36,135 nt of DNA from the IMG/VR virus record IMGVR_UViG_2563366968_000009; one strand, written 5' to 3'. Positions 8,449-36,135 of this stretch are shown piece by piece. Under the pieces are notes generated by a model. The model was not told the origin of the DNA and made no database searches. It worked only from the letters and a program-made list of their open reading frames with translations. The DNA is from a virus. Taxonomy: Duplodnaviria > Heunggongvirae > Uroviricota > Caudoviricetes. Position 1 is the first letter of the stretch. Every line of letters begins with the position of its first letter. A program made the translations under genes and the position numbers.

Positions 8449-9498
8449 TTAACTACATGAATCAATGATGTTTTTCACAAGCTTATTTATTTCAGATTCA
8501 TTAGTGCCAAATTCACCCGCTTTAAAATTAATACCTCGCGCTGCAAGATTTCTTTTTATTTTACTTACTTCACTCAGCATAAAGTCATAATTTAACGTTT
8601 TTTCTTTAATGCCCTTTGAATATATTACAGGGAAGGCTTTCATTAATGCCGCATATCCTGTGAGTTTACTTAAATAATATTCCCTTGGTGTATTCCACTC
8701 AACTGGATAGACATTGCTAATAGCATTAAAATAATTCAATATTATTTTTTGAATTACAGCGTCATTCTCTTCGATAAAATAATCGCGGAATATACACTGA
8801 TTATTTGGCGTTAATGGCAGATTCATTTTTAACATTCTTGCATCATCATCAGGTTTTTTTGAAATATGTTGGATAAGATATTTAATGAAAGTGCTTTGTG
8901 ATAATGATGCATTATCTTGGTTTATTTCCTTTTTCCCAAGCATTTTTAGCTTTTTATAAAAAGGGGAATCAGGATTACTGTTTATTCCTCTCGCGATTTC
9001 GTGGCATGTTTTTTGTGGACTCCTGCGTTCTGCAAGCGAAAATAAATCATATACAATTGATGGATTTACACGAGTTTGTTTACTATTAATAATTGAGAAA
9101 ACATAGGCTTTTTCTTCATCAGTAAGATCAAACATTAAAACAACAGGTAGTTCAAAAAGTTTAGCATTAGAGGAATTTTTAATTCCCCATAATCTGTGTT
9201 GACCATCGATAACATCACCTATAACCACTTCAGACTCAAAGTAAAAATAGGTATCATCCATTTTTAAATTGGATGAATCATCGACGGAAATTATGATCGG
9301 CGTTGGAAAAGTCGCATCCGGCTCACTAGTGTACTTTGCGATTTCTGAAACTCTTGATGATGAAATATCCCTTTGCACACCAAATTCGAAATCTCTGCGA
9401 CGATCAACTCTAACTATATCGAGCAAGTCAATGGCTCTTATTGATGTTAAATAGAAAGTACCGATTGGTTGATTAACTTCAATATATTTCAACTTCAT
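8449..9498 (-). CDS. DGQHR-motif protein (DndB-like, predicted ParB/Srx-fold), 349 aa; cargo gene 2
   Basis: Motif VIDGQHRLWG at residues 96-105 plus an N-terminal Q-R dipeptide (VQRD, residues 41-44), as in DndB-type proteins. AAGGAG Shine-Dalgarno 7 nt upstream; start ATG overlaps the stop of the upstream membrane gene (ATGA). Visibly AT-rich compared with flanking tail genes. Confidence 0.7.
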   Translation of the reverse strand: MKLKYIEVNQPIGTFYLTSIRAIDLLDIVRVDRRRDFEFGVQRDISSSRVSEIAKYTSEPDATFPTPIIISVDDSSNLKMDDTYFYFESEVVIGDVIDGQHRLWGIKNSSNAKLFELPVVLMFDLTDEEKAYVFSIINSKQTRVNPSIVYDLFSLAERRSPQKTCHEIARGINSNPDSPFYKKLKMLGKKEINQDNASLSQSTFIKYLIQHISKKPDDDARMLKMNLPLTPNNQCIFRDYFIEENDAVIQKIILNYFNAISNVYPVEWNTPREYYLSKLTGYAALMKAFPVIYSKGIKEKTLNYDFMLSEVSKIKRNLAARGINFKAGEFGTNESEINKLVKNIIDSCS

Positions 9499-10094
9499 AT
9501 CATAACTCCTTTACCATCATCAGTTACTTCATTGGTTGCCATTGTCTGATCTATAACTATTGCATCTTCTTTTTCTATATAACTTTCATCATTTATATCT
9601 GTATGTGCAGTAGCGTTAAGTTTTAATACGCCAAATGTATAGCATACTAAGACTATAGAAATAACATAAATTATAGGTTGAGTTAAACCGAATGTTAAAT
9701 CATTAGAATTTGGTAGGATTAAATCCTTTGATTGCGTAGCAGCGTATATTATTCCTGATAATTGTAATAAAATAATCAATAATATTATTGATATGATTTT
9801 TATTGTTTTAAATTCAAGTTTTGAACTAAAAAAAGTTACAAACATAGGCCCAAGGGCAGAGGCTATTAATGCAATGGAAAATGTGTAAAAACTTCCTGAC
9901 GAACCTTCTATGTAAATAGATTGATCTAGTGGTATTGAATGTGAATAATATCTTATGATTATATTTGCAATAATCCCCATTTGCCCACAAACAACTGTAA
10001 AAACGATCCAAATAAAAAACTCTCTTTTGTTTTTTCTTATCGCATCGAATGGATAGGAAAGGGATTTCTTTAATATTTGCCAGTCTTTACTCAT
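9495..10094 (-). CDS. Predicted 4-TM inner-membrane protein with acidic C-terminal tail (about 199 aa); cargo gene 1
   Basis: Four hydrophobic segments (approx residues 29-50, 72-92, 101-122, 142-160 of the track ORF). The track ORF begins at a GTG (10103); I prefer the ATG at 10094 (MSKDWQ...). AT-rich; first gene of a coupled two-gene operon. Confidence 0.6.
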   Translation of the reverse strand: MSKDWQILKKSLSYPFDAIRKNKREFFIWIVFTVVCGQMGIIANIIIRYYSHSIPLDQSIYIEGSSGSFYTFSIALIASALGPMFVTFFSSKLEFKTIKIISIILLIILLQLSGIIYAATQSKDLILPNSNDLTFGLTQPIIYVISIVLVCYTFGVLKLNATAHTDINDESYIEKEDAIVIDQTMATNEVTDDGKGVMI

Positions 10095-10498
10095 GTTATG
10101 CACTCTTTATTTAAACTTATCAACAATATGTAACTATCAATTAATAACCGTTTACTCTTTTCAAATAATAAAATTATAATCATCAAAAAAATCGACATTA
10201 TAATTAGACAACATTTTTAACACTAAGTGATACCTGACTCATGTCTCCAGACCCTAAAACCGCTTGCATAATTTAGAATGATAATACTACCTTATAGTAG
10301 GCTTGTGAACTTATATAGCATGAGTCAAGTAATTAATAAATCACTTATTTCGTTTTTTTTGCATTTGGTCGCTGTGATTTTTTCATAAACAAACTTACAA
10401 TGATGTCAGCAATGTCTGCTCTTGGCACAGAGCGGACTGTCAGATTAGTTTTTACTCTGTGCCATAGATGTATAAACTCACATCAGAGCTTATACAAT

Positions 10499-11077
10499 TT
10501 ATTGTGGCATTTCAGGCCATTCTATATCCGGAGCATCTTCCGGCTGAATGCGATTCAGTAGCACACGGTATTTTTTCCAGTGTGTCAGGCTTAACTTTTC
10601 TTCCTCAGTTGCCATATCCAAATCGACAGCATCCTGCAGCGTGGCAATAATTTCACCTGCATATGCAATCTGCTCTTTCTTCTGAGACTCAGCCGCTCTG
10701 ACAAGTGCATCACGCTCTGCATTCTCATCATTCACCCACGCATTTCCGTTCCATTTCTGATAATCCCCCTCCGGGGAAATGGCTGTCACGTCTGGAGATA
10801 ATGCGCCAAGTTCAGAAATATAAATGGCTGCTCCCGTTTTCGTTTCGTATACGGTCTTTCCGCGATGGTCTTCCATCAACTCCCATTTCATTTCATCTGC
10901 ATTGAAAACGGCTGCATAACCAGCCGGTATATCAGGCGGCGCAATATCTGTACTGTTTGCAGGCAAACCTGTATACGGAGGAATATATGCATCACTTTCG
11001 CCAATAAATTCATTGGTTCCATCAAGTAAATTGAAAACGCGGATAGTTTGTGCTTCTGCACTCATTCTGAAAGCCAT
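10499..11077 (-). CDS. G: Tail fiber assembly chaperone gpG
   Basis: Position immediately after H with TAATG stop/start overlap, and size, match P2 G (Tfa family). Confidence 0.8.
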
Positions 11078-13695
11078 TATGCAAGCCTCACAATATAGTT
11101 AAATGCGATGTTTTTGACGGTGTTTTCGGTATTACCTGTAGCATTAACGGTAATAGAGTGCCCGTGTGAGCCAATAGCAACCGTGTGTGAATGTGCACCA
11201 ATACCAACCGTATGATTATGTGCGCCAATATCTACCGTGTGGGCATGATTCCCGGCAGCTCCTGATGTGCCATTAAACGATGGGTTGTCAAAGCCTGTTT
11301 TACCGGTTTCACCATTAGTATTGGCATTCCCTCTGTAAATGGTATGTGTATGGTTACCAGTGGTATTAGTGGTTTTTGTTCCGTAGTTAAACGTACTGAC
11401 TGTCTTCGTCCCGTAATCAAATGAACTGGTCGTTTTCGTCCCTAAATCCGTATTTGACGCACTGGCACTGTGAGTATGCGATTTAATCCCGTCCTGTTCC
11501 TGTGACAATACGGCACGCCCACTGGCGGGTTTGCCCTTGATTGTCCAGCCGCGCATATCTGGAATAACACCAGAAGGATAGACAATAGCCAGTTTCGGAT
11601 ATGCAGCCTTATCAAACGTCTGACCCTGCATAATTGCATAGCCTGCAGGTGGTGTATCTGATGGCCACGGCAGCGGAACACCAGGCGGAAACGCTTCAAT
11701 ATCTTTCGTCCCGTCAAAGGTTACGCCGTTAATTGTCCTTGCCGTTTTCAGCTTTGTTGCTGTAGCAGCATTGCCGGACAGTTCGCCTGAAAGACCGGCG
11801 CTGAAGGTTTGTTTCGCCGCCCATGTCTGGGCTTCGTCAATAATTGGCACACGTCTTGTGGTGATCGTGCGACTTCCCGGATTTCCTGAAATACGCACCA
11901 TAAAAAAGCGGTAGTTCGCTTTACTTACAGTGCTGCGCCATACATGCATTGAGCGCCCCGCACCGGAATCATCACTCGGACCAACTGAGATGTTTATCAG
12001 GTTGCCATCAATGACGCCCCAGTCCATACCTTCGGGAATGTTGGTCATGTTATCAAGCCGAACGGTTATCAGACTGCCCGGCACAAAGTCGTAGGTCTGC
12101 CAGTCCAGGCTGGAGAGTTTTGCCACTGCACCGCCGATACCCAGATTCAGGGGAAGTGAATACGAGGTGTAGACTTCCCGCCATTCGCTCCACGAGCTGC
12201 CGGTATAGACGCGCTCAAACGTGCGACCTTTAAGGGTTGCACCTGTTCCGGCAGTTGTATAACGCTGCCATACGTTAACACCATCAAAGCGCCTCAACAC
12301 TTCCAGAATCCCGAGGACTGTCACGCCGTTTCCGTCCAGTATTGGACCGTTGGTCGCTTTACCTGTAACGCTGTAAATACCTGGTGAAGTCACCTCATTC
12401 AAATCCCCGTCGTAATAACGACTCTCTGACTGATGACCGACTCTTAACCACGGTTCCCACTGTGGATTTGATGCATCCCAGCTTGCCGCAAGGCAGCGGA
12501 CATACATATTTCCACGGCGAGTGGTATAACGTTGCGTTCTTCCATAATTCCCGCCTTCGAGGATCTCAAGCATCCCCTGAGCAAAGCCGCCTTCCTCTGG
12601 ATAATTGCGTTCATATGAAGCTATAGCCGAGCTACTGTTACGCCATAAACCAAGATGCTCGGCGGCTCCAAGCGTATTCAGGTCTATAGTCGTACTCAAA
12701 GGGCGGGTAGCAGATTGAGTGTGACGCCATACGCCCCACGGACCATCAGTGCCATTCCACTTATTGGCGAGTTTACGCATGTAAACATTGCCGTCTCTCG
12801 TGGTAAAGCGTTGCGTACCTGCAAAATTGCCGGCAGCAAAAACCTCAAGCACACCGACAGCATTATCTTCCGGGAAATTTTTCTCCAGTGTTGCGTTAGT
12901 TGAGGTAGCTTTAGACCAGATCCCCAGATAAGCCTTAACGGGACCAAATGTATTCAGGTCGGCATCAACCGGCATTTCGCCATTGTTTTTCATAAACGTC
13001 AGACTGGTAACGCCAACATTGTCCAGAAAAGCTGATTTATCCTGGATATCTGCACCATTCTGATTTTTCGCCAGACGTGAATTTGCGTTGTCATTTGCTG
13101 CCTTGACCGCTTTTGGCGTTGCCGCCAATGACTCACTGGTGCTGTTTGTTGCACTGCTTAACTGAGTAAAACCTTTTTCTGTCAGCGTGGCGTCAGGATG
13201 GCGGCGGGACTGCTCATGTTCTGCGATTTTGTCATCGACGTAATCCTGCGTCGCCATCACTGTGCTGGCATCAATACTCAGCTCAACGGACGCCACGTTA
13301 CTGACAATAATAACCATGCGGCAGGTCTGCGCACGCCCGGAGCCTTCAGCGAGTTCAGGCTTATAGCTTTCTGCCATGTTGGCGACCGCAATCAGTGTTC
13401 CGGCATCGTCATACAGACCAAGCTCACGCATCCAGAAGCCGCCCACTTCGGGCGGTACAACCAGTTCAGCCACGATATAGTTTTTATTCTTATTATCCAC
13501 GCTGACTTTATTCAGAGCGTGACGCCAGACCTCATGCACCAGTTTCGTCTGACCGGCATCCGGCACCGGCAATTTGCCATTACCGTCACCCACGGCCATT
13601 GCAGACAGGTTTACTTTTTTCCCGCCGGGGACAGTGGCGGCTGCCAGCTTCGCGGCTCCGGCAGTAGTGATAACGGTTTTAAATTTCGTGCTCAT
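11077..13695 (-). CDS. H: Tail fiber protein gpH (872 aa) with divergent distal half
   Basis: N-terminus ([20 protein letters not shown]...) matches P2 H from memory. The central region has three related ~60-aa repeats; the C-terminus has periodic GxHxHTV repeats. Confidence 0.85.
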
Positions 13696-24334: not shown

Positions 24335-25368
24335 TGAGTAAGAAAAAAGGGAAAACACCGCAGCCAGCGGTGAAAACAATGACCGCCAGCGCCCCGAAAA
24401 TGGAGGCATTCACCTTTGGTGAGCCGGTGCCGGTACTCGACCGCCGTGACATTCTGGATTACGTCGAGTGCATCAGTAACGGCAGATGGTATGAGCCACC
24501 GGTCAGCTTTACCGGTCTGGCAAAAAGCCTGCGTGCCGCCGTGCATCACAGCTCACCGATTTACGTCAAACGTAATATTCTGGCTTCAACGTTTATCCCG
24601 CATCCGTGGCTTTCCCAGCAGGATTTCAGCCGCTTTGTGCTGGATTTTCTGGTGTTCGGTAATGCGTTTCTGGAAAAGCGTTACAGCACCACCGGTAAGG
24701 TCATCAGACTGGAAACCTCACCGGCAAAATATACCCGCCGTGGTGTGGAAGAAGATATTTACTGGTGGGTGCCATCCTTCCATGAGCCGACACCTTTCGC
24801 GCCCGGCTCCGTGTTTCACCTGCTGGAGCCGGATATTAATCAGGAGCTGTACGGTCTGCCGGAATATCTCAGCGCCCTTAACTCTGCCTGGCTGAATGAA
24901 TCAGCCACGCTGTTCCGCCGCAAGTATTACGAAAATGGCGCTCATGCCGGATACATCATGTACGTCACCGATGCCGTGCAGGATCGCAACGATATCGAAA
25001 TGCTCCGCGAAAACATGGTGAAGTCGAAAGGCCGCAACAACTTTAAAAACCTGTTTCTCTATGCCCCGCAGGGGAAAGCTGACGGCATCAAAATTATCCC
25101 GCTCAGTGAAGTGGCGACAAAGGACGATTTTTTTAATATCAAAAAATCCAGCGCCGCTGACCTGCTGGACGCGCACCGCATCCCCTTTCAGTTGATGGGC
25201 GGCAAGCCGGAGAACGTCGGGTCGCTGGGCGATATTGAGAAAGTGGCAAAGGTCTTTGTCCGCAATGAGCTTATCCCGTTACAGGACAGGATTCGGGAAA
25301 TAAACGGCTGGCTCGGTCAGGAGGTCATCCGCTTTAAAAACTACTCACTGGACACTGACAACGGCTGA
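24334..25368 (+). CDS. Q: Portal protein gpQ (344 aa)
   Basis: Length and synteny match P2 Q. Confidence 0.9.
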   Translation: MSKKKGKTPQPAVKTMTASAPKMEAFTFGEPVPVLDRRDILDYVECISNGRWYEPPVSFTGLAKSLRAAVHHSSPIYVKRNILASTFIPHPWLSQQDFSRFVLDFLVFGNAFLEKRYSTTGKVIRLETSPAKYTRRGVEEDIYWWVPSFHEPTPFAPGSVFHLLEPDINQELYGLPEYLSALNSAWLNESATLFRRKYYENGAHAGYIMYVTDAVQDRNDIEMLRENMVKSKGRNNFKNLFLYAPQGKADGIKIIPLSEVATKDDFFNIKKSSAADLLDAHRIPFQLMGGKPENVGSLGDIEKVAKVFVRNELIPLQDRIREINGWLGQEVIRFKNYSLDTDNG

Positions 25369-25373
25369 ACATC

Positions 25374-25395
25374 GCCGCCTGCGGGCGGCTTTTTT
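25374..25395 (+). terminator. Rho-independent terminator after Q
   Basis: GCCGCC-TGCG-GGCGGC hairpin followed by TTTTTT, 6 bp after the Q stop codon. Confidence 0.7.
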
Positions 25396-25537
25396 ACACC
25401 CCGTCATCACGCCCTCACACGCTCACCACCGCACAAAACACCCCGCAGACACACCAACGCCTCAACGGGCAGACTAAGCGCGGTCACGACGCGCTCAGGC
25501 GCTGAAAAAATAAAATCAGCACCACCGCCTGCGCGCA

Positions 25538-25556
25538 GTGCTTTCCCCGCCTCGCC
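25538..25556. other. cos: cos site (19-nt cohesive end), reverse complement of GGCGAGGCGGGGAAAGCAC
   Basis: Plus-strand GTGCTTTCCCCGCCTCGCC is the reverse complement of the P2 cohesive-end sequence as I recall it; it lies just downstream of Q, where P2 cos is found. Confidence 0.7.
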
Positions 25557-25633
25557 CGCCCGCTTCATGGGTCGGTTTGAATGCAGTTGAATTACAACTA
25601 CCAAACCAAGCAATCCCTACTATTACGCAGAAA

Positions 25634-25680
25634 ATGCATACTGAAATACCTCGTGCAAATTGATGCAGCTAAGTATGCAT
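25634..25680 (-). terminator. Possible terminator or structured element 3' of the cargo gene
   Basis: 9-bp inverted repeat ATGCATACT (25634..25642) and AGTATGCAT (25672..25680) followed on the minus strand by UUUUCUG. A perfect 12-bp palindrome AACGTATACGTT (25695..25706) abuts the stop codon. The long loop makes this uncertain. Confidence 0.3.
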
Positions 25681-25707
25681 AGGTTTTATGCCTCAACGTA
25701 TACGTTA

Positions 25708-27540
25708 TCAAACAGAGCCCTGTTCAAATACAGTATCAAAATATGGTAGGAGAGGATAAGCACACAGAAAGAAAATCAGGATGCATGCATATGTCGTTGT
25801 TTCATCGTAACAAGCATTAGTATATAAATTACCATGTGCTAATTTATGTCTTAAGGTTGCCCCACTCTTTCTATTAAAAAGAACATCGATAGTTAAAACA
25901 AGATTCTTAGAAAAGATACTTTCCAAATCATCTCTGCATTTATCTAGAAGCTGAGAAATACTTGTTGACTCCTCTAATCCCTTATCCAAATATCTAGTAG
26001 CATCCTTTCCACTAAGCTCATAATAATAACGAACCATACCTTCCATTTGTGGTATTAAAAGATAAGCTGCACTGATGTAATCTCCCTGCCATAATTTGTA
26101 AAAGCCCAAATTAAAAATCTCCCTAAACTCCGGCTTGACAATTGGACTAGTTGTAACTAATTTAACGAATGTTGACAACGTCAAGCCATGTTCTTGAGAA
26201 AGTACATAGCGAGCAGGTTCAAAGACACCGTTTACAAAAATCTTATGAGTAATCTCGAAATTTCTTAGATATTGATCAATAACAACATCATCACTCATAT
26301 CTTTTTTATTATCCAACGGCGGGATTGTATATACCTTACGCCCACTCTCATCATTAATTTCTGTTCCAACAAAACTAGAGAATAAACTTTTTTCTGATAA
26401 TCTTAAAACTTGCTCCCTCATGCTTTCAATATTTTCAATCGGTGTTTCACGCATTAAAACTTTGAATATATCGGGCAAAGAACGCCCCGTCAGTTTTTTT
26501 TCACTTTCAGCAACCAAGTCACTAATATCAATAGAATGGCTTAAAGTGACATATTCACTCCTTACTTCTTCTCTCAAATTAGCAAGTTGTTCCTTTAAAT
26601 CTTCTATCTGTTGGCTATCACCACCGTACTGTCTTAATTCAGAGATAGCTGTTCTTAACCAAGAGATCTTACCCATATTATCAGGTCGATCTGTTGCAAC
26701 TTTAATAGTAATATTTGCAGATGCCAGTTTACATCTCTTGGCACGTTCATACTCACCATTTTTTTCATAAATAACTGCACTTGTCATATAAAGTGATTTT
26801 ACAGCATCATAATATTTTTTATCTTTATGCTGCTCAGCCATCTTCTCAGCATTTTCCGCATACTGCAGATTATACCCATCAAAATCACGCACCATAAACC
26901 AAGTCAAATTATTGAAACCTTCAAAGATTAATCTTTCATTTTGAATACTATAAAGAGAATGAATGGCATTTTTAATCGCCATGTTTCCTTCTGATTTTCT
27001 AGGGTAGACCATTTTATTAATGTGCAAAGCCCTAGCAATATAATCACGAGCAAAAATAAAGCAATTTAAATCACTTTCATCCATGCTTTCGTTTTTTATT
27101 ATTAGTTTTTCAATTGCTATATTTAGCATTTCAGCATAGGAATCAATTGCTTTAATTGCCACGTCTTTATTTTTCCGGTTATTACACCAAACAACATCAT
27201 ATATTCTTGATAACAAAAATGGATTGGTTATTTTTTGAGAAACATATAAAAGACAGTCATTCACCTGCTCATCAAAATCTTCAGGCAATATTGATCTTTT
27301 ATTACCCCAAATCATTTGGGGTTCAAATGATGGAGTGTTGTTAACAACTTGCAAATTGAAACTATATAGCATACCAAAAAGAGATGCTAATTTTTTCTCT
27401 TTGGGGTTTCCTGATGATTCAGCAATCCCATCCAGATATTTTTTTATTTTATGTGCATGAAATGTAACTGGTATATGCATAAAAACACTATAATCTAGTG
27501 TTTCAAGCTCTTCCCTTGTAAGAACAAAGATATCATTCAT
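25708..27540 (-). CDS. Large standalone protein (about 610 aa) with C-terminal HEPN-like R-x4-H motif; cargo at the tin/old position
   Basis: C-terminal ...NRKSGATLRHKLAHGNLY... contains R-x4-H. Start placed at the ATG at 27540 (MNDIFVLTREE...) with AAGGTG 6 nt upstream; the track ORF starts at an upstream TTG (27642). Visibly AT-rich; occupies the slot between cos and gene A. Confidence 0.6.
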   Translation of the reverse strand: MNDIFVLTREELETLDYSVFMHIPVTFHAHKIKKYLDGIAESSGNPKEKKLASLFGMLYSFNLQVVNNTPSFEPQMIWGNKRSILPEDFDEQVNDCLLYVSQKITNPFLLSRIYDVVWCNNRKNKDVAIKAIDSYAEMLNIAIEKLIIKNESMDESDLNCFIFARDYIARALHINKMVYPRKSEGNMAIKNAIHSLYSIQNERLIFEGFNNLTWFMVRDFDGYNLQYAENAEKMAEQHKDKKYYDAVKSLYMTSAVIYEKNGEYERAKRCKLASANITIKVATDRPDNMGKISWLRTAISELRQYGGDSQQIEDLKEQLANLREEVRSEYVTLSHSIDISDLVAESEKKLTGRSLPDIFKVLMRETPIENIESMREQVLRLSEKSLFSSFVGTEINDESGRKVYTIPPLDNKKDMSDDVVIDQYLRNFEITHKIFVNGVFEPARYVLSQEHGLTLSTFVKLVTTSPIVKPEFREIFNLGFYKLWQGDYISAAYLLIPQMEGMVRYYYELSGKDATRYLDKGLEESTSISQLLDKCRDDLESIFSKNLVLTIDVLFNRKSGATLRHKLAHGNLYTNACYDETTTYACILIFFLCAYPLLPYFDTVFEQGSV

Positions 27541-27656
27541 CGTTTTCACCTTTTTCAGTATAAATTTGCACACATTATTAGCAACATAATTATCAATAGT
27601 TAACACATGCAGATAAACAGCAATTTTACTATTATGCAACAAATTAAATCAGATGT

Positions 27657-29939
27657 TTATTGCTCTGAATAACAATAAAACCAACTCCACTCATCAGCGA
27701 CCGGATACGTAAATTTTTTCCCGTTGTAATCTACGGTCGCACCACGCGCCAGCGCCTCAAGCTCCCATCGCTGCGGCCTGATACCCTTTTGAGCAAGGTC
27801 AACACGGATACGGGTAATTTGCATTCGTTCCGACCTGGTCAGTCTGGCCGATGGTGCCATTTCATATGGTTTTAACGGGCTTCCGTTTCTTTGCTGACGG
27901 TTTTGCGTTCTCCGACCGTGTTTTAATGCGCCTCTGAGCGCCCTCACAACCTCCGGGTCATTCCATTCTATAACCCCGTCATCAACCAGATTAAGCACTG
28001 CTGCAGCGTGCTCAGACGGTGTGGGAGCCGGTAACGAAGCATCACTACCGGTGAGCTTTCCACAGTTATTGACAGGACTCCGAGGCGCGGCGATGCCGCT
28101 TTTTAAAGTCAAAGGCTCAACGACCGGAACTTTCGGAACAATGCGCCAGTCCGTCGTTCTGGTGATATGAATATGACGCGCGCCGAGATGCGGCGCGTAA
28201 ATGCCGACCACTCTCTCGACTTCTTCCTCGTACTCGTTAACTTCATCCGACGGGCTACGGGCAACCCTGACAGTCTGACAATCGCGCGGGACATTTGCCC
28301 CACCCTGCGCGCTGATATACAACGCAAAATCACCACTGTCTGCGGCGGCGCGTGCAGCCTCGACGCGTTCGTCAAACTCATCAGCAATGCTGACGCCGCG
28401 AGGCAATTTGCGTAGTTCACGGTAAGCGCCCATTGTCGGCAGGCCAACCGTTTTAAATTGCGGGATACGCCACGTTGACGCCCATGCGGTAACAGCCGCT
28501 GCAGTGTCTTTCAGCGGCCTGCCGGTATCGTTATCGAGCTGACCATCCAGTGCATAGCCGTCGATGTTTTTTGAGATGTATTTCGCGATATACCCCGCAG
28601 CACCGCCCCGGTTAAGGTGTTTTGCCTGAAAACGGTTTCGCGCAGCTCCTCTTTCGTCGCCATCCTCTTTGAGTGCGTAGCGACGCATGATTTCGATAAT
28701 CTGGTTACGCTGGCGCGGATTACAAAAAAGCATCATATGCCAGTGCGGCGTTCCGTCGTGGTGTGGCTCGACGACACGCAAACCGTAGACCTGTAAATCA
28801 TTATCCTTGAATGCCGTGCGCATCAGGCTCCAGATATGGCAGAGATAACGCTGCGCATCCTTTGGATTAAATGCCTCATCGTTCCAGCCGTGATTTAGCT
28901 GGACGGTTTTACTTTCGCCTTTTCCGACCTGACGTGTCGGGTGATACTTTGACGGCGCGGTCAGCGTGATAAACATCCCCACATCACCCTCTGCTGCGGC
29001 GTAACGCTCAATACCGGCAATGGTGTTCATCAGCTCCATCCGGCGAATTTCAGGATTAGAAATACTGCCCATCACCTTACTGATAAGGTCGATGCGCTCG
29101 CCGGTTTCCCTGTTTTCAAGGTCACACGATTTAAGAAATTCCAGATTTGCCTGGCGGCGTGCACGTACATCACGAATGGCATGTTTACTGGCATAAGGAG
29201 AACGGTCTTTATTCACCTCCCCGACAGCAATCAGTAACGCCTCATGCCAGCGCATACGCTGGCCTTTAAGCTGATGAGTCCACCACTCATCGTTAAACAG
29301 ACGGGCAATGGCAGAATATGCCTGCCTCGTGGTCATCTGTCCTTTACGGTATTTTTTCCAGTAGAGAGGGGAAATATTGAAAGCTCGTGCAGCGCCAGCA
29401 ACATGACCATACAGGTGATCCTGAGCCTCATCCGTAAACAGTGATTCTTTTTCGCCATGCGCATCCACCCAGGCATCGCTGAGTTCCTCATACATCATGA
29501 AAAGCTGCGATGAGATACGGGCGGCAAACTTTTTCAGCTCCTTGTCATTCATTCCCGGCAGGCGCGCATAGTGGTCACGCTCTGCCAGAAACAGCAACGA
29601 CGCGTCGGTGTTCATTTCATGGCGCTGATTCACACGCTCAATGCGCGGCCATAAACGACGCTGAAAAGTGGATGTGAGGAAATAAAACCCGTGCACCGGG
29701 CTTTTATTGCGCCGGATGTAGTCATAGCGTGAAGTAAACAGCGAGCGCAAAAAGTAAGGCAGGCGGTTAATCGTGGATAAAACACCTTGCACCTGACGCA
29801 TCTCGTCACGTGTAAGGGGTCTTTCGCGCCCGACGGCCTCGCGTGGCGCGTTCCATGCATAAGCACCGGTAAACGTCTTACCGGTGCCTGCGGCAAATGC
29901 TGACGGAGGGACAAAACGCCCGGAGGCTTTAACGACCAT
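27657..29939 (-). CDS. A: Replication initiation protein gpA (rolling-circle nickase), about 760 aa
   Basis: Protein matches P2 gpA from memory (MAVKASGRFVPPSAFAAGTGK...; here MVVKASGRF...). Start placed at the internal ATG; the track ORF (to 29981) is 14 codons longer. The exact start is uncertain. Confidence 0.8.
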   Translation of the reverse strand: MVVKASGRFVPPSAFAAGTGKTFTGAYAWNAPREAVGRERPLTRDEMRQVQGVLSTINRLPYFLRSLFTSRYDYIRRNKSPVHGFYFLTSTFQRRLWPRIERVNQRHEMNTDASLLFLAERDHYARLPGMNDKELKKFAARISSQLFMMYEELSDAWVDAHGEKESLFTDEAQDHLYGHVAGAARAFNISPLYWKKYRKGQMTTRQAYSAIARLFNDEWWTHQLKGQRMRWHEALLIAVGEVNKDRSPYASKHAIRDVRARRQANLEFLKSCDLENRETGERIDLISKVMGSISNPEIRRMELMNTIAGIERYAAAEGDVGMFITLTAPSKYHPTRQVGKGESKTVQLNHGWNDEAFNPKDAQRYLCHIWSLMRTAFKDNDLQVYGLRVVEPHHDGTPHWHMMLFCNPRQRNQIIEIMRRYALKEDGDERGAARNRFQAKHLNRGGAAGYIAKYISKNIDGYALDGQLDNDTGRPLKDTAAAVTAWASTWRIPQFKTVGLPTMGAYRELRKLPRGVSIADEFDERVEAARAAADSGDFALYISAQGGANVPRDCQTVRVARSPSDEVNEYEEEVERVVGIYAPHLGARHIHITRTTDWRIVPKVPVVEPLTLKSGIAAPRSPVNNCGKLTGSDASLPAPTPSEHAAAVLNLVDDGVIEWNDPEVVRALRGALKHGRRTQNRQQRNGSPLKPYEMAPSARLTRSERMQITRIRVDLAQKGIRPQRWELEALARGATVDYNGKKFTYPVADEWSWFYCYSEQ

Positions 29940-30204
29940 ATGAGCCAAAAGCCTCTGAACAACGCTTGCTGAGTTGCTCAACCTGCGCGTTTAAATCAGC
30001 AAAAGACTTTGCGCTTCCGGTCAGAATATCGTGATGCATCAGGCCGGAAACGAGCTGGCTTAATTTCGGGTAATAACCAACCACCGCCAGCCATTCCTGA
30101 CCGGCGTTTTTACCACTTTCCGCTCTCTTTTTCTCGTGGAGAATAAACTGAAAGCTGTCACTGGTAACGACATAACGTTCGCCAATTTCAATACGAATAC
30201 TCAT
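29929..30204 (-). CDS. Small early-region protein (91 aa), P2 orf83-like
   Basis: ORF directly upstream of A in the same orientation; assigned by position only. Confidence 0.55.
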   Translation of the reverse strand: MSIRIEIGERYVVTSDSFQFILHEKKRAESGKNAGQEWLAVVGYYPKLSQLVSGLMHHDILTGSAKSFADLNAQVEQLSKRCSEAFGSYGR

Positions 30205-30425
30205 GCCGTTCTCCGGTAATGTTTGTTTTTTGCTTCAAAGACTGACTGACAGGAAACACAACGCGTGGCTGACGGATAAGCCGCACGACGGGCAGCAGGT
30301 ATTGGCGCGTCACACTCTTCGCAAACCAGCGCAGAAGCACCGCAATGTTTTACCCTTGCCGCGTTAATCTGGCGCTCCAGTAATTCAGCCTGTTGTTCCT
30401 GAATAAAATCTACGTTGTCCGGCAT
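30201..30425 (-). CDS. TraR/DksA-family C4 zinc-finger protein (74 aa), P2 orf82-like
   Basis: Cys pairs CEEC...CVSC with the spacing typical of TraR/DksA C-terminal zinc fingers; ATGA overlap with neighbours. Confidence 0.65.
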   Translation of the reverse strand: MPDNVDFIQEQQAELLERQINAARVKHCGASALVCEECDAPIPAARRAAYPSATRCVSCQSVFEAKNKHYRRTA

Positions 30426-30730
30426 TACCAGTTCCTTTTGTCGTTAAGGTTTTTAAATTCATCAGCGCAATAGCTGGCGATTTCTGTCGTTAATTTCGTC
30501 AGTTCATCCACGGAGGAGATTTGCTTGTGAAACACAGCGCGTTTAACAAGTAAATTGACCACATCAGACAGGAGATTTAATTCGTTCTGATAAATCGCGA
30601 TAACAGACTCAGTTATTTCGCGTTTTTCTTTATCAAGACCAAGTTGAATAAGAGATAAATCGCCATTTTTCATAACGGCGATTTTTAAGGCGTTATTCAG
30701 TAATACAACTGAACGAGAACAGAACATCAA
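30425..30730 (-). CDS. Small early-region protein (101 aa), P2 orf81-like
   Basis: Strong GGGGAGGTG Shine-Dalgarno 6 nt upstream of the ATG at 30730. Confidence 0.55.
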
Positions 30731-30951
30731 AGCACCTCCCCGCGAGACAATCCGATATTGTGAAATTTTTCCGACTCCTGACTGAGCAGCTCGACTATCT
30801 CCACGCGGGATAACTCCGCCTTTGTGATGTGGCGAATCATGGCGTCAAGATGAGAAGAAAAGCGCGTCGCTGCGTCGGCCTGTGCTTCGGTTCTGGCCTG
30901 TTGCAGCAGTAATGTGTATTTACCGCACTGATTTTCAGAAACTGTATGCAT
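30727..30951 (-). CDS. Small early-region protein (74 aa), P2 orf80-like
   Basis: Start placed at the ATG at 30951 (MHTVSENQ...) with GGAG 7 nt upstream; the track start at 30984 lacks a Shine-Dalgarno. Confidence 0.5.
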
Positions 30952-31014
30952 GACTTTCTCCAGGCAAAAAGAAGCCCCGCACAATTAAGTGCGTTAAAAA
31001 CTCTGGTTAATTAC

Positions 31015-31515
31015 TTAATGCAGATATTGCTCTGGTTTTACCGACGTCAGAATTGTCGGTGCATACTCAAACAGACTGAATAATTCACGTAATGCACGGA
31101 ATAAAGCATCACGCCAGTAACATGATTCTTCATTAATGCGCCAGTACGGCTGATTGAATTCTTTTTCTGTCAATCCCGCATGCATAAATAAAGTGCGACG
31201 CTGACTGACTGTTAAAAAACTAATATATGCATACTCACTCGCGCCAACCTGACGGCGTTTTGAGAATGCCCCACGCAATTCATCAATTGCACATACCAGT
31301 CGTTCACGTTCGACGTCGTTCATTTCTTCAAAACGCATCGTTGCGTGACGCTGTTTTAACTGAGCATGGAAGCAAACCGTTAACCGTTCGCGCTCCATCA
31401 TCTGATTATAATAATCACATGTCTCCTGCCAGCGAGGGACGGCCAGATGCTTACCAATTATCCGGCGCATAGCTGCTGGCTGTTTTTCAACGAGATTGAG
31501 CGTCATCACTGTCAT
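31015..31515 (-). CDS. B: Replication protein gpB (166 aa; helicase-loader-like)
   Basis: MTVMTLNLVEKQPAAMRRIIGKHLAVPRWQETCDYYNQMMERERLTVCFH... matches P2 B from memory. Confidence 0.85.
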   Translation of the reverse strand: MTVMTLNLVEKQPAAMRRIIGKHLAVPRWQETCDYYNQMMERERLTVCFHAQLKQRHATMRFEEMNDVERERLVCAIDELRGAFSKRRQVGASEYAYISFLTVSQRRTLFMHAGLTEKEFNQPYWRINEESCYWRDALFRALRELFSLFEYAPTILTSVKPEQYLH

Positions 31516-31682
31516 TTCCATACCCTCCGGCTTTTCAGAAAGGTCAGAGCCTTTTTTAACGGACTCTGTTTTTTGGTACGGATAATGATTCCCTTACGCC
31601 CCTTACCGTGGGTGATGGTGAAGTCAAACGCCCTGGGGCTTTCGTTACGCAGTAACTGAGCAATACAACGAGGCTCATTCAT
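31512..31682 (-). CDS. Small protein (56 aa), P2 orf78-like
   Basis: Short ORF between cox and B, as in P2; start chosen to give the 56-aa P2-like product. Confidence 0.5.
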   Translation of the reverse strand: MNEPRCIAQLLRNESPRAFDFTITHGKGRKGIIIRTKKQSPLKKALTFLKSRRVWK

Positions 31683-31692
31683 ACGGTTCTCC

Positions 31693-31968
31693 TTAACGTG
31701 GTTCACCGAGACCTAACCACATCAACCAGCCGTCACGAATCTCTTTAGGGCGGCTTTCATAAGCCAGTTTTAGTCCGTTATTCCATGCCGGAAGGTATAC
31801 CCAATATTCACCTGCACGACCTGAAGCTGATTGTGGATCGGTCATATCAATTACAGGCAGCTTTCCTTTATCGATCATCCGACGAACCGCTCCTGTCGAT
31901 TTTCCTATTAGTTTTGCGAACTCCTGATAAGGAATCGCATCAGTCATGAGTGTTACTTGCTTGCTCAT
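31693..31968 (-). CDS. cox: Cox (91 aa): excisionase / directionality factor and Pc repressor
   Basis: MSKQVTLMTDAIPYQEFAKLIGKSTGAVRRMIDKGKLPVIDMTDPQSASGRAGEYWVYLPAWNNGLKLAYESRPKEIRDGWLMWLGLGEPR matches P2 Cox from memory. Confidence 0.9.
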   Translation of the reverse strand: MSKQVTLMTDAIPYQEFAKLIGKSTGAVRRMIDKGKLPVIDMTDPQSASGRAGEYWVYLPAWNNGLKLAYESRPKEIRDGWLMWLGLGEPR

Positions 31969-32042
31969 GTTGTCCTCCAGCCCTCATGAATTGCGTTTAA
32001 TGCCTTATAATGCCTTTTAGTGCCCACATCCAAGCACTAAAC

Positions 32043-32079
32043 AATCTACATCTAAACCAAATACTATTGAGATCTAAAC
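32043..32079. promoter_or_regulatory. Pe/Pc switch region with direct-repeat operators ATCTAAAC (32050..32057 and 32072..32079, 22 bp apart)
   Basis: Two identical 8-mers spaced two helical turns apart between divergent cox and C, plus a related AATCTACA at 32043..32050. P2 repressor C is known to bind direct repeats spanning the early promoter. Confidence 0.5.
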
Positions 32080-32082
32080 ACC

Positions 32083-32382
32083 ATGTCAAACACGATAAGC
32101 GAGAAGATAGTCTTAATGCGAAAATCAGAGTATTTGAGCAGACAACAACTTGCTGATTTAACAGGGGTTCCGTATGGCACGCTGAGTTACTATGAAAGTG
32201 GTCGTTCAACACCTCCAACAGATGTCATGATGAACATCCTGCAGACCCCACAATTCACCAAATACACTTTATGGTTCATGACCAATCAGATCGCTCCTGA
32301 GTCCGGGCAAATTGCGCCCGCTCTCGCACACTTTGGGCAAAACGAAACAACGTCGCCCCACTCCGGTCAAAAGACTGGTTAA
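32083..32382 (+). CDS. C: Immunity repressor C (99 aa)
   Basis: MSNTISEKIVLMRKSEYLSRQQLADLTGVPYGTLSYYESGRSTPPTDVMMNILQTPQFTKYTLWFMTNQIAPESGQIAPALAHFGQNETTSPHSGQKTG matches P2 C from memory. Confidence 0.9.
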   Translation: MSNTISEKIVLMRKSEYLSRQQLADLTGVPYGTLSYYESGRSTPPTDVMMNILQTPQFTKYTLWFMTNQIAPESGQIAPALAHFGQNETTSPHSGQKTG

Positions 32383-32497
32383 CAATTCATCGTGAATATA
32401 TTCATTACAAGTGCCTACTATTGGTGGCTAAATTTCAGCCACCACGAAAAAAGCGATTAGTAGTCGCAAAAAAACACACCACTCGGAGGGTTTTCTG

Positions 32498-33511
32498 ATG
32501 GCAATCAAAAAACTCGATGATGGTCGATATGAAGTGGACATCCGCCCTACTGGACGTAATGGAAAACGCATCCGTAGGAAGTTTGATAAGAAAAGCGAAG
32601 CTGTCGCTTTCGAGAAATACACGTTGTACAACCACCACAATAAAGAATGGCTATCAAAACCAACAGACAAACGACGTCTGTCGGAACTGACACAGATCTG
32701 GTGGGATTTAAAGGGTAAACACGAAGAGCATGGGAAATCTAATCTTGGAAAAATTGAAATCTTCACAAAAATAACGAATGACCCATGCGCATTTCAAATC
32801 ACGAAATCCCTTATCAGCCAGTACTGCGCCACCCGAAGAAGTCAGGGTATTAAACCTTCGAGTATCAATCGTGATTTAACATGTATTAGCGGCATGTTTA
32901 CAGCCCTGATTGAAGCGGAGTTATTCTTTGGTGAGCACCCTATCAGAGGGACAAAGAGGCTTAAGGAGGAAAAACCAGAAACAGGCTATCTCACACAGGA
33001 AGAAATTGCCTTACTGCTTGCAGCACTTGACGGCGACAATAAAAAGATTGCGATTCTTTGCCTGAGTACAGGAGCACGTTGGGGAGAAGCAGCTCGTTTG
33101 AAAGCAGAAAATATCATCCATAACCGCGTCACGTTTGTTAAAACGAAAACAAACAAACCACGCACCGTCCCGATCTCAGAGGCTGTTGCCAAAATGATCG
33201 CGGATAACAAACGAGGTTTTTTATTCCCTGATGCTGATTACCCTCGCTTCAGACGAACAATGAAAGCAATAAAACCGGATTTGCCAATGGGGCAAGCCAC
33301 ACATGCACTAAGGCACAGCTTTGCCACTCATTTCATGATTAATGGAGGAAGTATTATTACGCTACAACGGATACTAGGTCACACGCGGATTGAGCAAACG
33401 ATGGTTTACGCTCATTTTGCGCCAGAGTACCTTCAGGACGCCATTTCTCTTAATCCGCTAAGAGGTGGTACTGAGGCCGAGAGTGTCCACACAGTGTCCA
33501 CAGTAGAGTAA
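32498..33511 (+). CDS. int: Tyrosine integrase (337 aa)
   Basis: Length and position next to attR match P2 Int; C-terminal R...HxxR...Y-type catalytic region (ATHALRHSFATH...MVYAHF); GGAGGG Shine-Dalgarno. Confidence 0.9.
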   Translation: MAIKKLDDGRYEVDIRPTGRNGKRIRRKFDKKSEAVAFEKYTLYNHHNKEWLSKPTDKRRLSELTQIWWDLKGKHEEHGKSNLGKIEIFTKITNDPCAFQITKSLISQYCATRRSQGIKPSSINRDLTCISGMFTALIEAELFFGEHPIRGTKRLKEEKPETGYLTQEEIALLLAALDGDNKKIAILCLSTGARWGEAARLKAENIIHNRVTFVKTKTNKPRTVPISEAVAKMIADNKRGFLFPDADYPRFRRTMKAIKPDLPMGQATHALRHSFATHFMINGGSIITLQRILGHTRIEQTMVYAHFAPEYLQDAISLNPLRGGTEAESVHTVSTVE

Positions 33512-33590
33512 CGTTTAAGGGCTTTCAGTGGTAATTTATGCCGCTCAAACCCGCATTGTACCGTTGAAAGCCCCTACTGTTGACACCCTA

Positions 33591-33617
33591 AATCTCCCTT
33601 ACACGGGCTTATTTTTT
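33591..33617. other. attR: attR core, 27 bp identical to attL
   Basis: Exact repeat of 1507..1533, 80 bp downstream of int. Confidence 0.85.
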
Positions 33618-33787
33618 GTGCATAAACCATAGAGACGGATTGATCCCAGGTGACCGTCTTCCATTGACCACATCGATAGAATCTCCCTTCATAGCACGAT
33701 GCCTTTCACGTAACGGCATCGTGCTCGCACAGGTTCCGGCTAAGCACAACCAGAACGCGCATGTTTGACGCTTACCAAAAAATATTC

Positions 33788-34105
33788 TCACTCTCCACAT
33801 TTGAATGTCAGACGAGCGACGCCATGTAATCCTGCACCTTCTGTCTTCAGGTCAACTATCTGCATTTTTTTGCCCTGAGTAACACAGAAATGAGCTGCAT
33901 CATTTTTTACTATATTTTCTGCACCAGATATTCTGCCCCTGGCTAAAGAAGCTTCGGCTTCGGTGTAGTATTGGTTATCGAGTTTACGCTGAATATTACT
34001 TTTATATGCAAGACCAAATTTACCGATACTTGTCTCATCATTATGTACAGCACACCCAGACATAAGAAAAACACTAATTAATGATATAGCAGCTATCTTT
34101 TTCAT
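33788..34105 (-). CDS. yegR: Lipoprotein YegR (105 aa)
   Basis: MKKIAAISLISVFLMSGC... has a signal peptide and lipobox. Start placed at the internal ATG (105 aa) rather than the extended track ORF. Synteny with yegS as in E. coli. Confidence 0.75.
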   Translation of the reverse strand: MKKIAAISLISVFLMSGCAVHNDETSIGKFGLAYKSNIQRKLDNQYYTEAEASLARGRISGAENIVKNDAAHFCVTQGKKMQIVDLKTEGAGLHGVARLTFKCGE

Positions 34106-34519
34106 CTTACCTTCCCCCATTAAATACCAACGACACGCTCTGGTGTTAAAATATAATAATGGCATGATTATTATAATTGAATAGGATTATAATAAATGTT
34201 CTGTACAACATTTCCTACATAAGTAGGAATTACAAACATGAAGCCCTGCCCAGGTATCCCCATGAGGGCTTTAATATATTTAGAATAAGATAGTGAAGAT
34301 GCCACTGTTTAGTTGAATATTAGGTATATGCTCTTTTTTGAAATTTACCGGTGGCTACCGTTAACATTCACTGTCCCCATTGCAAGCTCCTGGTGGTAAC
34401 CACTGAATCCTCCATACTTGAACTGATTTTTTATCCTCCGACTTTCATCCTGTTCTGACTCCACCTTTTCTTTTCTGCTCTACACTATCTACAGACCAAT
34501 CATAAAGGCACATACGATC

Positions 34520-35404
34520 ATGGCAGAATTTCCCGCCAGCTTACTGATTCTTAATGGCAAAAGTACTGACAATTTACCATTGCGCGAAGCAATTATGCTG
34601 TTGCGTGAGGAAGGAATGACGATCCATGTGCGGGTCACCTGGGAGAAAGGCGATGCCGCACGATATGTAGAGGAGGCCCGGAAGTTGGGCGTCGCAACGG
34701 TGATTGCCGGTGGTGGCGATGGCACCATTAATGAAGTTTCTACGGCGTTGATTCAGTGTGAGGGGGATGACATACCCGCGCTAGGAATTTTGCCATTAGG
34801 AACCGCCAATGATTTTGCCACCAGTGTAAGGATTCCTGAGGCACTGGATAAGGCGCTGAAACTGGCAATTGCCGGTGACGCCATTGCGATAGATATGGCG
34901 CAGGTCAACAAACAAACCTGTTTTATTAATATGGCGACAGGCGGATTTGGGACGCGTATTACCACAGAAACGCCGGAAAAATTAAAAGCCGCGCTGGGTG
35001 GCGTCTCTTACATCATTCATGGCTTAATGCGCATGGATACTCTGCAACCGGACCGTTGTGAGATCCGCGGTGAAAACTTTCACTGGCAAGGTGACGCCCT
35101 GGTCATTGGTATTGGTAACGGGCGTCAGGCCGGTGGCGGTCAGCAATTGTGCCCGAACGCGTTAATTAACGATGGCTTGCTGCAACTGCGCATTTTTACC
35201 GGCGATGAAATTCTTCCGGCTCTCGTATCAACATTAAAATCTGACGAAGATAACCCGAATATTATCGAAGGCGCTTCGTCGTGGTTTGATATACAAGCCC
35301 CACACGAAATCACTTTTAATCTTGATGGCGAACCGTTGAGCGGACAAAATTTTCATATTGAAATACTTCCGGCGGCGTTGCGGGTGATGCTGCCAACTTA
35401 CTGA
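34520..35404 (+). CDS. yegS: Lipid kinase YegS, C-terminally altered by IS1 insertion (294 aa ORF)
   Basis: [45 protein letters not shown]... matches E. coli YegS (DAGK-family GGDG motif). The reading frame runs into IS1 at 35383 and ends ...[13 protein letters not shown], where I recall the native protein continuing ...RCRLPPDCPLLR. Confidence 0.85.
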
Positions 35405-35437
35405 TTTAGTGTATGATGGTGTTTTTGAGGTGCTCCA

Positions 35438-35713
35438 GTGGCTTCTGTTTCTATCAGCTGTCCCTCCTGTTCAGCTACTGACGGGGTGGTGCGTAACGGC
35501 AAAAGCACCGCCGGACATCAGCGCTATCTCTGCTCTCACTGCCGTAAAACATGGCAACTGCAGTTCACTTACACCGCTTCTCAACCCGGTACGCACCAGA
35601 AAATCATTGATATGGCCATGAATGGCGTTGGATGCCGGGCAACTGCACGCATTATGGGCGTTGGCCTCAACACGATTTTACGTCACTTAAAAAACTCAGG
35701 CCGCAGTCGGTAA
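35438..35713 (+). CDS. insA: IS1 InsA (91 aa), GTG start
   Basis: [43 protein letters not shown]... with zinc-finger Cys pairs and an HTH. Confidence 0.9.
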
Positions 35714-36135
35714 CCTCGCGCATACAGCCGGGCAGTGACGTCATCGTCTGCGCGGAAATGGACGAACAGTGGGGCTATGTCGGGGCTAAATCGCGCCAGC
35801 GCTGGCTGTTTTACGCGTATGACAGGATACGGAGGACGGTTGTTGCGCACGTATTCGGTGAACGCACGCTGGCCACGCTGGAGCGTCTTCTGGGCCTGCT
35901 GTCGGCCTTTGAGGTCGTGGTATGGATGACGGATGGCTGGCCGCTTTATGAATCACGCCTGAAGGGAGAACTGCACGTTATCAGCAAGCGATATACGCAG
36001 CGCATTGAGCGGCATAACCTGAATCTGAGGCAGCACCTGGCACGGCTGGGACGGAAGTCGCTGTCGTTCTCAAAATCGGTGGAGCTGCATGACAAAGTCA
36101 TCGGGCATTATCTGAACATAAAACACTATCAATAA
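35632..36135 (+). CDS. insB: IS1 InsB (167 aa in this frame; expressed as the InsAB' transposase by -1 frameshift)
   Basis: Matches IS1 InsB from memory, with several substitutions relative to the K-12 copy I recall. An A-run in TTAAAAAACTC (about 35688..35698) lies in the insA/insB overlap. Confidence 0.85.

Follow-up and report, generated by a model that had tools for sequence, protein, structure and literature searches.

The window, by which we mean the whole stretch of 36,135 nucleotides analysed here, closes with a yegS gene that runs into a copy of the insertion sequence IS1. Very probably, the locus carries a simple IS1 insertion that replaces the C-terminal tail of YegS and is otherwise unrearranged. 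In the proposed mechanism, a complete IS1, reading in the direction of yegS, would have entered the 3' end of the gene at the staggered 9-bp cut typical of IS1, here placed at GGCGTTGCG (codons 285–288). The yegS frame would then read 6 codons into the left repeat and stop, so that YegS(1–288)-VMLPTY would replace YegS(1–299). Directly after IS1 would come the 11 displaced final codons of yegS, then the hairpins of the native spacer, gatR in intact form, and the gat operon, with nothing else rearranged. The biology is known: an ordinary simple insertion of IS1 has altered the C-terminus encoded by a non-essential gene.

The yegS–IS1 junction and the uninterrupted allele

The left inverted repeat of IS1 begins at window position 35383, reading GGTGATGCTGCCAACTTACTGAT, and the open reading frame of yegS stops inside it (Table 1), as the initial annotation had read from the letters. 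Codon 288 (CGG, Arg) straddles the junction and is composed of two yegS bases and the first base of IS1. It is followed by six IS1-encoded codons and by a TGA at 35402–35404, inside the left inverted repeat. The chimeric YegS is thus a protein of 294 residues, of which residues 1–288 are from YegS and residues 289–294 (VMLPTY) are from the left inverted repeat of IS1. The insertion point lies 33 bases before the end of yegS; 11 native residues are lost and 6 foreign residues are gained.

Table 1 Features of the yegS–IS1 region of the window.
Feature	Position	Strand	Evidence
Chimeric yegS::IS1 reading frame	34520–35404	+	ORF list; NCBIfam; Pfam; exact protein on public contigs
Left copy of the 9-bp target-site duplication, GGCGTTGCG	35374–35382	+	yegS codons A-A-L-R (285–288)
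IS1 element, bases 1–753 of 768	35383–36135	+ (yegS direction)	L004 comparison; K-12 IS1 comparison
IS1 left terminal inverted repeat, 23 bp	35383–35405	+	18/23 complementary to right repeat
insA, 91 aa, GTG start	35438–35713	+	ORF list; NCBIfam; identical to K-12 IS1A InsA
insB frame, 167 aa as listed, open across the frameshift site	35632–36135	+	ORF list; NF033558, 146.8 bits
A6C motif AAAAAAC	35689–35695	+	IS1 position 307

The chimeric open reading frame scores 475.8 bits against the YegS equivalog NF009602 (cut-off, 284) and, in the same comparison with the NCBIfam YegS equivalogs (NF009602 / TIGR03702), 457 bits against a cut-off of 387.45. Chance resemblance is excluded because NCBIfam identifies both YegS and the IS1 transposase, and because the DNA identity to IS1A is 97% over the full length of the element.

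Native YegS is composed of 299 residues and ends in ILPAALRCRLPPDCPLLR (PDB sequences 2JGR/2BON, BL21 DNA, and strain 7/2). Aligned with the window, the uninterrupted allele (2JGR/2BON and strain 7/2) continues for 11 further residues past the junction. The statement in the initial annotation that the native protein goes on there is therefore correct, and the contrary case that it named, a native protein ending at the junction, is not what is found. Residues 1–288 of wild-type K-12 YegS differ from those of the chimera at 4 positions only, whereas the last 11 residues of wild-type YegS (PDB 2BON and 2JGR; Salmonella 2P1R) are CRLPPDCPLLR in place of VMLPTY. Among uninterrupted yegS alleles, the nearest, including that of strain 7/2, reach 99.9% identity. 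When IS1 and one duplicate are removed in silico, the resulting sequence aligns without gaps to the strain 7/2 locus over 5100 bp (99.75%) and yields a 299-residue YegS identical to the strain 7/2 protein. Because the excision restores the strain 7/2 locus without gaps, it argues for a simple insertion rather than a fragment or a rearrangement.

The window itself stops within IS1, as had been noticed at the outset, with 753 of 768 bases present. It ends at the insB stop codon, and the last 15 bp of IS1, GTTGGAGTCATTACC, fall outside, as does the right copy of GGCGTTGCG. Since the window ends before the right end of the element, completeness and duplication are read from a 100%-identical assembly, scaffold KB732383.1 of GCA_000350885.1 (L004), which matches window positions 24520–36135 (11,616 bp) with no gaps and no N. 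L004 runs beyond the end of the window and holds the whole IS1 (10864–11631, 768 bp), ending ...AAGTTGGAGTCATTACC. GGCGTTGCG flanks the element on both sides (10855–10863 and 11632–11640). After the right duplicate come the orphan yegS codons (...CRLPPDCPLLR and stop), the hairpins, an intact gatR (259 aa), and gatD-C-B-A-Z-Y. With a right end and a 9-bp duplication found over an identity of 100% across 11.6 kb, the element is an insertion and not a fragment, as had been claimed. L004 is a short-read-era scaffold in which the interior of a repeat could be filled from other IS1 copies; both junctions are unique sequence.

RNA folding predicts two stable hairpins between IS1 and the 3' end of gatR. 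A simple terminator scan of the yegS–gatR spacer returned nothing convincing. The arrival of IS1 by an adjacent deletion starting in gatR was also considered and was rejected, given an intact gatR and a perfect 9-bp duplication.

The IS1 copy

The element has the features of the IS1 family: a length of 768 bp, terminal repeats of ~23 bp, insA and insB with an A6C motif, and a 9-bp duplication. The left repeat GGTGATGCTGCCAACTTACTGAT matches the reverse complement of the right repeat, GGTAATGACTCCAACTTATTGAT, at 18 of 23 positions, the right repeat being seen only in L004. A simple consensus scan places a promoter-like site, CTGCCA-16-TATGAT, at window 35390–35417 (L004 10871–10898), which starts within the left inverted repeat and ends just past it. 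We take this site to correspond to the known insA promoter. The A6C motif in IS1 is a programmed −1 frameshift site that fuses InsA to the insB frame, giving the InsAB' transposase. In NCBIfam, positions 1–81 of the IS1 transposase profile NF033558 are matched by InsA and positions 75–199 by InsB, and RefSeq annotates a programmed frameshift on identical or related IS1 copies. All features needed for activity are intact as far as the sequence tells, and the copy is apparently complete and functional. Identical copies lie at other loci in three complete genomes, consistent with mobility.

Compared with K-12 IS1A (NC_000913.3 19796–20563), the element has the same length of 768 bp, the same terminal repeats, the same A6C site, and an identical InsA, and 745 of 768 bases (97.0%) are shared; the corresponding number for K-12 IS1F is 708 of 768. 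The 23 substitutions relative to IS1A are clustered at positions 262–265 and 444–621. Because 18 of them carry the IS1F base (262, 265, and 444–621) and the other 5 are private, the copy is, judged by its bases, a minor mosaic isoform. InsB differs from K-12 IS1A InsB at 13 of 167 residues. Both observations bear out the suggestion in the initial annotation that a distinct IS1 isoform, with an InsB unlike that of K-12, is present.

Full-length copies with 100% identity occur in four records, which represent three complete genomes, among 20,395 records. Of 9,599 matching records, 153 hold copies with at least 99% identity; the bulk of E. coli IS1 copies are 95–99% identical to the window's element. 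The RefSeq label on the identical copies is "IS1 family transposase, programmed frameshift" and not "IS1A family".

Consequences for YegS

Pfam places DAGK_cat (PF00781) over residues 8–129 of the chimera and the beta-sandwich domain YegS_C (PF19279) over residues 151–290, and both domains are untouched. The nucleotide-binding GGDG motif is present, and A63-GGGDGT-69 is invariant across the alignments.

The lost residues are conserved. The YegS proteins of Escherichia, Citrobacter, and Salmonella are only 84–90% identical overall, yet CRLPPDCPLLR hardly varies among them. In a comparison of the tails of 46 distant YegS homologues (34–65% identity), L291 is present in 37, P292 in 41, P296 in 40, L297 in 37, and L298 in 31. 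Of the conserved motif at the C-terminus, L-P-x-x-(C/A/S)-P-L-L, L291 and P292 remain in the chimera, whereas P296, L297, and L298 are gone; apart from this motif, the gene is a genuine yegS. The IS1-encoded V-M-L-P coincidentally fits the family consensus hydrophobic-x-L-P at positions 289–292.

AlphaFold, which bears on fold and not on stability, predicts one and the same fold for native YegS and the chimera, down to the long final strand (271–291), at mean pLDDT values of 88.7 and 87.4, respectively. Crystal structures 2BON and 2P1R agree with the native model. In the tail, the pLDDT is 96 for native YegS, and it is 88 for the last block of the chimera.

Because P-L-L is conserved in distant homologues and the native tail is modelled with high confidence, the lost tail is neither a dispensable decoration nor a floppy appendix. 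The loss of the conserved P-L-L motif suggests that the altered YegS is probably hypomorphic or destabilised, rather than the product of a harmless swap. The initial annotation had called the change a tail swap rather than a knockout. The catalytic domains are intact, but the denial of a knockout is unproven, as the conserved P296-L297-L298 is lost. Since VMLPTY reproduces hydrophobic-x-L-P at 289–292, a stable YegS lacking only P-L-L is conceivable. Such a chimera would be a natural separation-of-function allele, which we regard as quite improbable; if true, the allele would help to find what the YegS tail does. On the level of RNA, the yegS mRNA would run into IS1 and end there instead of at its own terminator hairpins; IS1 is strongly polar.

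Rarity, neighbouring insertions, and alternative readings

As one contiguous match, the exact junction is found in 0 of 5,426 complete E. coli genomes, with either a 400-bp or a 90-bp probe. Probe matches with "full coverage" were considered as instances of the same allele and were rejected, since the loci, when read, proved to be joined pieces of other nearby IS1 insertions. The exact 294-residue chimeric protein is encoded on 7 public contigs (NCBI isolates, an ENA metagenome, and a Logan assembly). The allele is a rare, clone-restricted polymorphism. A description of it was not found in full-text articles on the YegS structure or on gatR with IS1 and galactitol, and a yegS-rich paper (PMC3708739) has no mention of IS1. 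One metagenome scaffold with the same junction (L006) opens, at 1–52, with an inverted IS1 end, an artefact of the kind that repeats typically cause in assembly.

At least six independent IS1 events, the one in the window included, lie within about 1 kb of the window's site. In strain 51489 (NZ_CM135151.1), IS1 likewise interrupts yegS towards its 3' end, in the window's orientation and with a 9-bp flanking duplication (GGCGAACCG), whereas its site is 47 bp upstream of the window's, its element is of the IS1A type, and the annotated product is 280 aa. In LZYWN_4, IS1 lies in the yegS–gatR spacer (TGCCGGATG), and in Ec-U5 and the BL21 lineage it lies in gatR, at separate sites. The insertions of Ec-U5, 51489, BL21(DE3), and LZYWN_4 (L001, L002, L003, and L008) each have their own flanking 8–9-bp repeat, and all four are in the window's orientation, which the probe design favoured.

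The gatR::IS insertion of K-12 and the IS1 insertions in gatR of BL21(DE3) and Ec-U5 belong to the same neighbourhood and the same event class as the window's insertion, and those of BL21 and Ec-U5 also share its element family and orientation. They differ in their target: gatR::IS insertions interrupt the galactitol repressor and lift repression of the gat operon, whereas here yegS is struck and gatR is intact. In BL21(DE3), gatR is split by IS1 (L003, 3319–4868), and in the B strain REL606 gatR is described as intact in a multi-omics comparison of B and K-12 (PMC3446290), suggesting that gatR::IS1 may be specific to the BL21 branch. In PCP06238 (L013, NZ_CM129870.1, 1738–2670), the YegS protein is the same as that of the pre-insertion allele, and an inverted IS1 abuts both yegS and yegT. 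The whole gat operon is gone from this strain, with gatR, gatYZABCD, and fbaB (about 8 kb) missing, which suggests that the galactitol operon was lost in an IS1-associated deletion.

PCP06238 bears on the reading in which IS1 marks a rearrangement in the window's own genome (an adjacent deletion, an inversion, or a composite transposon) and only the relative looks simple. The window stops inside IS1, and PCP06238, with its identical YegS protein and its order yegS-IS1-yegT without gatR to fbaB, indicates that IS1-associated deletions do occur here; however, its IS1 is at another site and in the opposite orientation. L004 shares 11,616 bp with the window at 100% identity up to the window's last base, and it is colinear through the right end, the 9-bp duplication, gatR, and the gat operon. 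A rearrangement is thus highly improbable. That the junction is an assembly artefact, with a repeat end misjoined to yegS, is barely credible. Contigs often break or mis-join at IS1, as the 52-bp inverted IS1 end at the terminus of L006 illustrates, but the identical junction and the 294-aa protein recur in independent NCBI isolate assemblies, an ENA metagenome, and a Logan assembly, and the right junction matches, with a perfect 9-bp duplication.

A simple insertion might still have been selected instead of being neutral, either because YegS is weakened or inactivated or because transcription from IS1 runs antisense into the convergent gatR and alters the galactitol operon. Inactivation of yegS alone raised fitness in glucose-limited chemostats (PMC3708739), and IS insertions that inactivate gatR arise, spread, and are selected in the mouse gut (PMC5850726). 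The number of independent IS1 events nearby and the conservation of the lost P-L-L motif point in the same direction, and the repeated insertions around yegS and gatR might reflect selection in the gut. However, the local clustering of IS1 is a raw count and may be unremarkable against the genome-wide per-kb background. In addition, gatR is intact here, two stable hairpins remain between IS1 and its 3' end, and carriers of the allele are rare (none of 5,426 complete genomes and about 7 contigs). Selection of this insertion therefore seems unlikely. The most likely reading is that of a recent polymorphism confined to one clone, with a neutral or mildly deleterious effect.

Most of the window upstream of yegS is taken up by a roughly 32-kb P2-like prophage (about 1534–33590; ogr, 1635–1916; integrase, 32498–33511), which sits between yegQ/trhP and yegR. 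The CyaR sRNA (1445–1530, + strand; Rfam RF00112, 100.7 bits) adjoins its left end, and the flanks 79–1533 and 33591–35382 are contiguous in BL21 and Ec-U5. A gene at 25708–27642 (− strand) encodes a 610–644-aa protein with DUF7380 and a match (E 1e-84) to PDC-S39, a candidate defence family of PADLOC. The portal gene lies to one side of it and the gpA replication gene to the other, a position that we take to be the old/tin cargo hotspot of P2. A two-gene insert at 8449–10103 (− strand) is located upstream of ORFs of 192 and 872 aa (10499–13695), which are presumably the tail-fibre genes, by the usual P2 gene order. The first gene of the insert encodes a 349-aa DndB/DpdB-like protein (PADLOC DpdB, 1.2e-16; Pfam DndB, 5e-11) and the second a 202-aa protein with no family match. 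By its position, the insert presumably occupies the Z/fun cargo site of P2 phages.

The yegS–gatR interval took several independent IS1 insertions in sequenced E. coli. The yegS::IS1 allele, a textbook case of simple IS1 insertion, carries little weight beyond strain typing; it can tag a small clonal lineage of E. coli in which a P2-like prophage sits at cyaR and yegS is 99.9% identical to the strain 7/2 allele. As a natural allele, it could inform the role of YegS, whose last residues are more conserved than had been assumed.
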